Assembly: GCA_029856365.1 (NCBI GenBank)
Contig: JAHQWW010000058.1
Location: 1 to 22,436 of the forward strand
Source of the DNA: Candidatus Hodarchaeota archaeon
GTDB taxonomy: Archaea; Asgardarchaeota; Heimdallarchaeia; Hodarchaeales; Hodarchaeaceae
Direction of reading: 5' to 3'
Length of the DNA stretch: 22,436 nucleotides
Shown: in pieces, positions 1,120 to 22,436 of the stretch
How the letters are laid out: every line of letters starts with the position of its first letter
How positions within the stretch are numbered: the first letter of the stretch is position 1
Notes under the pieces: model-generated
What the model saw: only the letters and a program-made list of their open reading frames with translations
Database searches by the model: none
What the model was told of the DNA's origin: nothing
Position numbers and translations under genes: made by a program

Positions 1120-1489
1120 TATGACTACATCCTCTTGTGTTTGGAAGTTATTTTACATTGTTTTAAAACCTATTTTTAACAGATTTCTTGTGTTAAATCA
1201 TCTGTAATCTACTCTTTATGACTTATTTGACAGATTGATATGATTTTTACTTATAATCCAGAATGTATTACCAGATTTCATCAATAAAGGCGTTTTAATT
1301 GCCATTATCACTAATTATAAAACTAAGTTCATTATGGTCTATAGTGCAAAAAGAAAAGAAAAGAAAAATAAGGGATGATTTACTGAGAGACCTCGACAGA
1401 ATCATGCATAATCTTGTCAGCTAATATGATCTCCGACCTAATAGTCAAATCTCCAATACTATTCAATATGTCAGCCTTTCATAAATCAC

Positions 1490-1500
1490 TTATATTTAAA
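1490..1500 (+). promoter_or_regulatory. candidate TATA box of pan
   Basis: TTATATTTAAA about 30 bp upstream of the pan ATG. Confidence 0.4.
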
Positions 1501-5352: not shown

Positions 5353-5456
5353 GTCGGGATATCCAAGCCTGGTATGGAGCTGGCCTGCTAAAAATTATGT
5401 TTGCCGAGAGTCAGTGCTCTTTGAGCTCGGGGGTTCAAATCCCCCTCCCGACGCCA
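5353..5456 (+). tRNA. tRNA-Ser(GCU) with an 18-nt intron at 37/38 (5391-5408); CCA encoded
   Basis: Acceptor GTCGGGA/TCCCGAC-G-CCA, D arm TCCA/TGGA, anticodon stem CTGGC/GTCAG with CT-GCT-A, long variable arm GCTC/GAGC, T arm GGGGG-TTCAAAT-CCCCC. Confidence 0.93.
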
Positions 5457-5914: not shown

Positions 5915-5989
5915 TGGGCCGACCCAGATTCGAACTGGGGACCTTCTCCGTGTCAGGGAGACGTCATAGCCGGGCTAGACCACCGGCCC
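5915..5989 (-). tRNA. tRNA-Val(GAC), intronless
   Basis: GGGCCGG/TCGGCCC-A acceptor, anticodon arm TCTCC-CTGACAC-GGAGA, T arm CCCAG-TTCGAAT-CTGGG; no encoded CCA. Confidence 0.96.
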
Positions 5990-18791: not shown

Positions 18792-18990
18792 GGGGACGTA
18801 GCGAAGCTAGTGGTCTTACTAAAAGCTAGCAAGACCGGACAAGTATCGCGCCGGGCTCCAGAACCCCCTGTGAACTCCACTGGGTTAACTGAAACTCATG
18901 ATGAAGTTCTGGAAAAATGAGGAAACTCGGTGTCACCTCTGCTGGTTGCAAGGTGTCCGAACATCGCCGGTTCAAATCCGGCCGTCCCCA
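18792..18990 (+). tRNA. tRNA-Trp(CCA) with three introns (about 18811-18842, 18862-18924, 18933-18962)
   Basis: Acceptor GGGGACG/CGTCCCC-A; D stem GCGA/TCGC; anticodon stem CCGGG/CTCGG with CT-CCA-G; T arm GCCGG-TTCAAAT-CCGGC; removing the three inserts gives a normal cloverleaf. Confidence 0.9.
18862..18924 (+). ncRNA. intron-encoded box C/D guide RNA of pre-tRNA-Trp
   Basis: D' CTGA 18889-92, C' ATGATGA 18898-904, D-like ATGA 18917-20; guides complementary to the host anticodon arm, +5 positions fall on C39 and C34. Confidence 0.85.
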
Positions 18991-20301: not shown

Positions 20302-20406
20302 GGGCCAGTGGTGAAGTTGGTATCACGCCGCCTTCGCAAGGCGGAGTATTCATAGGGTTTGCCCTTGGATGACCGCAACCCCCGAGTTCGAGTCTCGGCT
20401 GGTCCA
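20302..20406 (+). tRNA. tRNA-Ala(CGC) with a variable-loop intron (about 20347-20378, position 45/46)
   Basis: Acceptor GGGCCAG/CTGGTCC-A with the G3:U70 alanine determinant; anticodon arm CCGCC-TTCGCAA-GGCGG; T arm CCGAG-TTCGAGT-CTCGG; 32-nt hairpin insert. Confidence 0.92.
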
Positions 20407-21743: not shown

Positions 21744-22199
21744 ATGTCAAAAAAACAACCTGAAAGAAATAAAGGGCATTTGTCCCGACTTCCTTGGATT
21801 CCTGGCTTAAAAAAACCTACAATCGATTTCAGGGTTCCAGATATCGAACTCCCTTATGAAGCTCCTCATAAATATATTTTGGCTTTAATACTCATTGCTA
21901 CTCTATTCATTTTAGCAGGTGGGCTTTATAATCTTACTGAACAACCATTACCAATGGGACAAACAGCCACTCAACTTGTACCAGTCTTTCGATCGTCAAG
22001 CGAACAATTTTTAGTTGAATCTCTTATAGCTGGACTATTTTTCGGATTAGGGGCGGGAGGACTATATTTAATTCGTTACTCAACTCGTTTTGCTTATGAT
22101 ATTAGGACTTCCATTACATTATTAATCTTGGGCATTATCATTACTCTTGTCGCAGCAGTCGGAACCACTGTAATGTATGACTTCAAAACTAGTCCGTAA
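21744..22199 (+). CDS. OST3/OST6-family oligosaccharyltransferase subunit, OSTC/DC2-like
   Basis: 151 aa, three TM helices, FILAGGLYNLTEQPLPMG and EQFLVESLIAGLFFGLGAGGLYLI parallel the GG.IY..I.EPP and QY..EGL..SFLF..GG.G motifs of eukaryotic OSTC. Confidence 0.75.
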   Translation: MSKKQPERNKGHLSRLPWIPGLKKPTIDFRVPDIELPYEAPHKYILALILIATLFILAGGLYNLTEQPLPMGQTATQLVPVFRSSSEQFLVESLIAGLFFGLGAGGLYLIRYSTRFAYDIRTSITLLILGIIITLVAAVGTTVMYDFKTSP

Positions 22200-22223
22200 T
22201 GCAACTTAATAACCATCCGTTTT

Positions 22224-22436
22224 GCCGGGGTTTAGTACATATCTTCATTTAGAGTACTCATGAAGTATTACTATCCGAGAGCCAAGCGGACGGGTTAGTG
22301 TTTATCCATTTCCCTGCAGTACGGCGCTGGCCTTGAGTTATTAAAGAGAATTGAAATGCAGCACTAGAAAGCCAGTGTACTTATTGTACTCGAGGGTTCG
22401 AATCTCAGGATGTTATTATCCTGAAAGAAAATCCCT
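22224..22436 (+). tRNA. tRNA-Ser(UGA) with at least four introns; 3' end beyond the window
   Basis: Exons: GCCGGGGT (22224-31) | AGCCAAGCGGAC (22280-91) | TACGGCGCTGGCCTTGAG (22320-37) | AGCCAGTGTACTTATTGTACTCGAGGGTTCGAA (22370-402) | TCCCT (22432-36); joined they give D stem GCC/GGC, anticodon stem CTGGC/GCCAG, long variable arm GTAC/GTAC and T arm GAGGG-TTCGAAT-CCCT. Confidence 0.85.

Follow-up and report, generated by a model that had tools for sequence, protein, structure and literature searches.

At the end of a contig from a Candidatus Hodarchaeota archaeon, a tRNA gene appears to be interrupted between positions 8 and 9 by an intron whose bulge-helix-bulge (BHB) motif recruits the 5′ strand of the acceptor stem. 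The locus raises the questions of whether this is a real, spliced intron and how such a motif could form and be cut in an RNA in which the same nucleotides also belong to the acceptor stem. The DNA analyzed here (the window) is 22,436 nt long and is the whole of contig C65 of a 4.24-Mb, 35% GC assembly. It contains a tRNA-Ser(UGA) gene with four introns (8/9, D-loop, 37/38, and 59/60) that overruns the contig end and resumes at the start of contig C81, the first 9 bases of which are the last 9 of C65. A preliminary description of the window had recognized the 8/9 intron; the three further introns and the crossing of the contig end had escaped it. The predicted parts of the gene and its leader are the following.

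22216..22222 (+): 5′ leader strand, positions −8 to −2, UCCGUUU; can pair with 22284–22290
22224..22231 (+): exon 1, G1–U8 (GCCGGGGU), the acceptor 5′ strand plus U8; G1C2 lie in helix h, C3–G6 supply the 5′ side of the central helix H, and G7 U8 open bulge 1
22232..22279 (+): intron 1 (48 nt), position 8/9, followed by AGC; comprises the third base of bulge 1 (U, 22232), the h′ strands UAGUA/UACUA, an inner hairpin, the H 3′ strand UCCG, and the AG of bulge 2 (22278–79)
22280..22291 (+): exon 2 (AGCCAAGCGGAC), from A9 to the D-loop; A9 is also the last base of bulge 2, G10C11 can pair with G1C2, and 22284–22290 with the leader
22292..22319 (+): intron 2 (28 nt), in the D-loop following mature base 20, with a central helix GCGG/CUGC that draws on 22286–22289
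22320..22337 (+): exon 3, D-stem 3′ strand, anticodon stem 5′ strand, and anticodon UGA
22338..22369 (+): intron 3 (32 nt), canonical position 37/38, with only three of four central-helix pairs
22370..22402 (+): exon 4, anticodon stem 3′ strand, long variable arm, T-stem 5′ strand, and T-loop to base 59
22403..22431 (+): intron 4 (29 nt), T-loop, 59/60
22432..22436 (+): start of exon 5 (UCCCU), which continues on C81
C81, bases 10–18: remaining T-stem, acceptor 3′ strand CCCCGGC, and discriminator G (G73)

The intron at position 8/9 and its host gene

The sequence from 22224 to 22282 forms a textbook BHB motif. As the preliminary description had stated, G1C2 (22224–25) can pair with G10C11 (22281–82), and the central helix is the one that it drew, CGGG (22226–29) with UCCG (22274–77), in which the last pair is G-U. 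Both 3-nt bulges were also borne out, G7 U8 ^U (22230–32) on one strand and A G ^A9 (22278–80) on the other, as was the intron helix, UAGUA (22233–37)/UACUA (22269–73), which continues into CUUCAU/AUGAAG around a GAGUACUC palindrome. The topology, h-H-B1-h′...h′-H-B2-h, is that of the canonical hBHBh′ motif, with an intron-side helix h′ of 5 bp and an exon-side helix h of 2 bp, or of 9 bp with the leader if the latter is transcribed. Cuts after the second base of each bulge are the sole sites that yield U8-A9-G10, and the predicted cuts, U8^U and G^A9, would excise the 48-nt intron 1 (22232–22279). RNAfold recovered both the central and intron helices from 22224–22282. The folding energy of these 59 nt alone is unremarkable (z −0.95); the support for the BHB comes from its register, conservation, and covariation and not from energy. 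Intron 1 is AU-rich (31% GC vs. 64% in the exons), and its BHB is the best formed among the four in the gene. The central helix of the D-loop intron has all four pairs in most orthologues. At 37/38, nearly all orthologues have a mispaired base opposite U34, and most form one to three of the four central-helix pairs; the boundaries as assigned may be one base off in places.

Removal of the four introns leaves an 85-nt tRNA-Ser(UGA) for which ARAGORN gives a perfect cloverleaf, with seven perfect acceptor pairs, a long variable arm, a normal T-arm, and G73. This is the sole Ser(UGA) gene of the assembly, in which UCA accounts for 27.7% of serine codons. The unspliced gene was called by neither ARAGORN nor Rfam, and 22224–22436 had no Rfam match at E values up to 10; for annotation, an essential tRNA is thereby entirely missed by standard tools. 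The exons are collinear, the break between the contigs, which overlap by 9 nt, reflects an assembly gap, and the downstream flank on C81 is homologous and syntenic with that of complete genes in two related genomes (G006 and G012). A split or permuted tRNA gene was ruled out by the collinear exons and the syntenic flanks in these relatives. The assembly break falls at the intron 4/exon 5 boundary inside the gene, and strain variation in intron content could explain it.

Intron 1 contains no box C (RUGAUGA) or box D (CUGA) within 22232–22279 and no intron-encoded guide RNA like that of pre-tRNA-Trp. A mobile or repeated intron was considered and rejected, as none of the four introns has a second genomic copy; besides self-matches, they match the genome only over at most 19 nt, at E values of at least 0.05. 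Four more tRNA genes lie in the window, at 5353–5453 (+), 5915–5989 (−), 18792–18990 (+), and 20302–20406 (+). Two of these four were found by cmscan at the gathering score, and ARAGORN run on the window reported a tRNA-Val only. The tRNA gene at 18792 (199 nt) has multiple introns, and the gene at 5353 was also found in a whole-genome Rfam search. Another intron-containing tRNA (G000:C32:26888-26996) is labeled tRNA-Pyl(CUA) by ARAGORN; it shares its acceptor stem AGCCCCG with two C142 tRNAs, so this label is probably wrong, owing to misplaced intron bounds.

The genome contains two PF01974 genes. One encodes an EndA α subunit of 183 aa that matches the catalytic α subunit of the Aeropyrum pernix enzyme (3P1Z_B) at 1.6e-42, and its loop with K44/R46 aligns without gaps, both positions being basic. 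The other encodes a β-like subunit of 210 aa that matches the structural units of the Methanopyrus kandleri and ARMAN-2 enzymes. RtcB is also encoded. As judged from these matches, the EndA is of the (αβ)2 type with the broad-specificity loop. An (αβ)2 EndA with this loop has been reported for Asgard archaea (PMC5829648), and the K44/R46 loop confers a broad substrate range (PMC3241643). The proposal of a BHB intron at 8/9 is upheld by the motif geometry, the valid mature tRNA, the matching enzymes in the genome, and the conservation and covariation described below. Together these make it very probable that tRNA-Ser(UGA) carries a real, spliced 8/9 BHB intron.

Conservation, gain, and loss within the genus

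Orthologues of the gene were sought by BLAST, a strict pattern scan, and a covariance model, by which it was recovered in 20 of the 21 other genomes of the genus. An initial, looser pattern scan had given chance matches in bacteria only; the stricter pattern succeeded. An insert of 36–49 nt is present exactly at 8/9 in 15 distinct genes, all from the same Hodarchaeales genus, and seven copies are without it. The middles of these inserts are mostly unalignable, and both ends are fixed in register. Across the 15 genes, 93–95% of cells are paired in the BHB register (93.3% in alignment A1), compared with 18–44% (17.6–41.2% in alignment A1) when the 3′ partner is slid by one to three columns, and in 500 shuffles neither the pairing nor the covariation score of the real alignment was reached. 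For the central helix, pairing in these genes is 98.3%. The intron strand opposite C3–G6 reads UUCG, UCCG, CCUG, CUCG, or CCCG, such that only C and U vary opposite G; the exception is genome G005, with ACUG and a G·A mismatch. The bulges are 3 nt in all intron-bearing genes. In the intron helix, four of the five pairs show changes on both sides, and the first pairs alternate (UA/CG/AU and GC/AU/CG/UA).

With a covariance model of exon 1, the BHB, and exon 2, matches were obtained in 15 of 22 genomes of the genus, source genome included, and the 61 genomes representing the other 17 genera of the class gave none, the model being bound to one exon sequence such that other 8/9 introns would escape it. 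Within the source genome, no other 8/9 BHB was found among acceptor-plus-T-arm tRNA candidates in a nonexhaustive scan that required a TTCRA T-loop and a near-perfect acceptor stem. The other multi-intron tRNAs of this genome have a 5′ end that is intact through the D-stem.

The 59/60 intron is present in 8 of the 22 copies in the genus, which display genes with 8/9 only, with 59/60 only, with both, and with neither, plus a tandem relic. In a HerA tree, the deep lineages of the genus have the 8/9 intron, with an unresolved backbone, and two well-supported clades lack it and have the 59/60 intron instead. This pattern suggests, but does not prove, an old intron with later losses. No outgroup tRNA-Ser(UGA) was found, the BLAST match in G022 being an intron-less Ser(GGA). 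In G006 (C1:983452-985935; L180, L184), the HerA orthologue matches as residues 1–365 and 363–494, ~1 kb apart, and the two pieces share one 835-aa open frame, which looks like the result of an intein or other in-frame insertion.

Two tRNA-Ser(UGA) copies in tandem are found in G012 (C266, about 1240–1490, minus strand; L007). The first is decayed, having kept the 8/9 intron (GCUGGGAU...) and lost the acceptor 3′ strand. The intact copy, ~60 nt downstream, has neither the 8/9 intron nor the leader motif and contains a 59/60 intron. The window gene, with both introns and the same downstream flank, looks like a recombinant of the two G012 copy types. The presence and absence of these introns within one genus provide a clean, small system for the analysis of intron gain and loss.

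The 5′ leader and competition between folds

The preliminary description had limited the outer helix to G1C2/G10C11. That pairing stands, and its extension into a conserved 5′ leader had been missed. Leader nucleotides −8 to −2 can pair with exon 2 from A13 to about A20, in exact register with G1C2/G10C11 past a single U·C mismatch, so that an outer helix of 2 bp would grow to 9 bp. The upstream motif, (C)CAUCCGUUUU, is common to all 15 intron-bearing genes. Counting the seven leader pairs together with G1C2/G10C11, the nine-pair outer helix is 97.8% paired in those genes. Twelve of them have GC at pair −5/C16, two have AU, and one has GU, and pair −4/G15 is UG or CG; this covariation amounts to one or two events among related genomes. 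As a control, the best leader/D-arm runs, in any register, were 2–6 in 30 other tRNAs of the genome, compared with 7 here. Runs of 6 occurred by chance in 3 of the 30, and the control lends support to the leader pairing but is not proof of it.

Of the seven intron-less genes, three, forming one clade, have the leader motif and four do not. In the former (G009, G017, and G014; L008, L009, and L011), the motif UCCAUUUU is kept 12 nt upstream of the tRNA and is still complementary to the gene's own exon 2 (AAGUGGA), which may be a relic of precise intron loss or reflect another role of the leader. TATA-like boxes lie ~30–42 nt upstream of G1, so that predicted leaders are only ~6–11 nt, and leader conservation could reflect promoter function. 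A 151-aa ORF without a Pfam match (window 21744–22199, +) ends 24 nt upstream of the tRNA, and the sole conserved TATA-like box upstream of the tRNA (UUCAAAAC and variants) sits in its 3′ end. The tRNA promoter may lie inside this ORF, or both genes may be co-transcribed. Upstream of the 22 copies, no conserved duplicate of the acceptor 5′ strand able to pair with the acceptor 3′ strand was found; the best such runs are mostly 4–5 nt, ~60 nt upstream and within the preceding ORF, and in 19 of 22 copies do not exceed shuffles. We infer that the leader is transcribed. On that assumption, its pairing with exon 2 as the outer BHB helix is supported by conservation and some covariation.

As the preliminary description had noted, the motif consumes the acceptor 5′ strand, since C3–G6 cannot pair at once with the intron and with C67–G70. 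It had also concluded that the intron must be removed before the acceptor stem can form. The BHB and the acceptor stem do exclude each other, but the acceptor stem can form with the intron present; indeed, the acceptor-stem fold is the predicted minimum free energy structure of the full precursor, in which the central-helix pairs have a probability of ~0. Thus, the BHB would have to be cut before, or in competition with, acceptor-stem formation. For the leaderless 222-nt precursor, the acceptor-stem fold has an energy of −69.9 kcal/mol, and the BHB fold costs about 12 kcal/mol relative to it (12–14, and 12.2 in one computation). With a leader of at least 8 nt, the gap between the two folds is 4.9–5.7 kcal/mol. 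In the exact BHB structure, the 80 nt that run from −12 through exon 2 have an energy of −21.5 kcal/mol; in their local minimum, at −22.3 kcal/mol (z −2.7 vs. shuffles), RNAfold places the central-helix pairing slightly differently from the exact BHB. Predicted folds of nascent prefixes of 90–225 nt retain the leader helix, which is lost only once the acceptor 3′ strand is present. The computed BHB is therefore favored only before the 3′ end is made; because the acceptor fold is predicted to win by ~5 kcal/mol in the full precursor even with the leader, the BHB needs a kinetic window or stabilization by the enzyme. In addition, the leader helix covers G15–G18 (22286–22289), the 5′ strand of the intron 2 central helix, and hence the first two BHBs of the gene exclude each other.

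These features can be assembled into a predicted order of events. An 80-nt, leader-clamped hBHBh′ hairpin would form on the nascent transcript well before synthesis of the acceptor 3′ strand, ~200 nt downstream. The (αβ)2 EndA would cut both bulges, at U8^ and ^A9, while the 9-bp leader helix would clamp the 8-nt 5′ exon to exon 2 for RtcB to join U8 to A9. The acceptor 3′ strand would then displace the leader, allowing the acceptor stem to form and RNase P to trim the leader. The D-loop intron BHB would form only after leader release, as both use G15–G18. Taken as a whole, intron together with leader clamp and early order, this explanation appears likely to be correct. Considered separately from the intron, the leader clamp and early order of splicing are what we cautiously lean toward. 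The leader might go further and act as an obligatory cis "splint" that completes the BHB, holds the 8-nt exon, and blocks both the acceptor stem and the BHB of the next intron, so that maturation would proceed in a set order, largely during transcription, from intron 1 through leader release and acceptor-stem formation to the D-loop intron. This stronger version is offered tentatively, as a serious possibility.

The same intron could instead be spliced from a minimal motif in which h consists of G1C2/G10C11 only. The enzymes would then retain the 8-nt exon, or it would be passed on to the acceptor 3′ strand, and the leader would belong to the promoter or initiation region or have some other role. 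The covariation signal is already present in the central helix and h′ alone, the leader persists in three intron-less genes (G009, G014, and G017), and chance complementarity reaches runs of 6 in other tRNAs, all of which speak for such a motif. However, the complementarity of the leader is exactly in register with h and accompanies the intron in 15 of 15 genes, with a GC-to-AU compensatory change, and four intron-less genes work without this leader, which indicates that it is not needed for expression as such. Moreover, without the leader the acceptor fold would be favored over the BHB fold by ~12 kcal/mol, and just 2 bp would retain the 5′ exon after cutting. We judge this minimal motif unlikely, though it deserves some weight.

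Far less probable is that the acceptor stem has already formed when the broad-specificity EndA cuts, using a relaxed motif of the bulge-helix-loop type. The acceptor-stem fold is the predicted minimum of the full precursor, and relaxed motifs are cut in vitro by (αβ)2 EndA with the specific loop (PMC3241643, PMC5829648), but in the acceptor fold both cut sites flank one and the same helix, h′, at its base, with no stagger across a 4-bp helix, so that no known EndA geometry fits; the strict conservation in 15 genes of the four intron bases opposite C3–G6 would also be left unexplained. One might also suspect a decaying pseudogene or an assembly chimera whose insert is never spliced, given a gene split over two contigs with an overlap of only 9 nt, missed by ARAGORN and Rfam, and with a truncated, 8/9 intron-containing copy in G012. 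This we find scarcely credible for the only Ser(UGA) gene of an assembly that uses UCA as a major codon, with all stems perfect once spliced, a C81 flank syntenic with complete genes in G006 and G012, an 8/9 element that lies entirely within one contig, and a BHB maintained across 15 diverged genes. The reading that we prefer remains that of an 8/9 intron spliced early from a leader-clamped BHB.

Comparison with known systems

The intron occupies a rare site for a known kind of intron; it is conserved, lineage-restricted, and located in an essential tRNA, and a leader-assisted splice signal is plausible. If correct, archaeal splicing tolerates an intron whose signal comes from the acceptor strand itself, which forces a choice between two folds of one RNA and leaves an eight-base 5′ exon. 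The impression of the preliminary description that 8/9 is not a common site agrees with its absence from the position lists in the accessible portion of PMC4090602. The noncanonical sites that this portion gives for Thermoproteales include 20/21, 22/23, 25/26, 29/30, 30/31, 45/46, 53/54, 56/57, and 59/60, with an extreme at 3/4. In the papers that our literature search covered, we found no published 8/9 intron and no leader strand that completes its BHB.

Like the noncanonical BHB introns of Thermoproteales and other TACK archaea (PMC4090602, PMC4033280), the 8/9 intron has an hBHBh′ motif with two 3-nt bulges and a 4-bp helix, and it shares with TACK tRNA introns the presence of several introns per gene and, as predicted here, excision by EndA and ligation by RtcB. 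The classic TACK sites 20/21, 37/38, and 59/60 co-occur in this gene. Unlike in TACK introns, the central helix is provided by the acceptor 5′ strand and the outer helix, as proposed, by the 5′ leader, in competition with the acceptor stem. The host also differs, being an Asgard archaeon, and the nearest 5′ site in the lists accessible from that work is 3/4, not 8/9.

Three introns per gene was the earlier maximum (PMC4033280, PMC8450103). Asgard archaea have been described in which nearly all tRNA genes are interrupted, a single gene holding as many as four or five introns (2024, PMC11291895; Goswami et al. 2026 preprint, 10.64898/2026.10.13.758758). With an Asgard host and four introns in one gene, the locus belongs with these heavily interrupted genes, with which it also has in common noncanonical sites with canonical BHB boundaries, gain and loss between close relatives, and a failure of standard callers to detect the genes (PMC11291895; 10.64898/2026.10.13.758758). 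Those studies center on Atabeyarchaeia and Jordiarchaeia/Freyarchaeia, whereas Heimdallarchaeia were reported to be less interrupted. The available part of the Atabeyarchaeia-1 table contains no called intron starting after base 8, and the accessible text of the Asgard intron studies describes no leader role.

The proposed leader helix resembles those of split and permuted tRNAs (Nanoarchaeum, Caldivirga, and Cyanidioschyzon; PMC4390854, PMC3978253), in which sequence from outside pairs with the tRNA, builds the BHB, and holds the pieces for ligation. Unlike in those systems, the gene here is contiguous, and the helper would be a short cis leader on the D-arm half of the next exon. A leader clamp, if true, would explain how tiny exons are retained for ligation and provide a concrete, testable case in Hodarchaeales of tRNA processing that follows an order and is probably co-transcriptional. 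If the leader is indeed an obligatory splint, it would be the cis equivalent of the leader helices of split tRNAs and would allow introns to persist at the extreme 5′ end of a tRNA, in the archaeal order nearest to eukaryotes. The predicted order of splicing also has a parallel in the ordered removal of BHB introns in Cyanidioschyzon merolae (PMC3728597) and in the iterative search of tRNAscan-SE 2.0 (PMC8450103), where one BHB awaits another. Unlike in C. merolae, the exclusion predicted here, from sequence, is between the outer helix of intron 1, the central helix of intron 2, and the acceptor stem.
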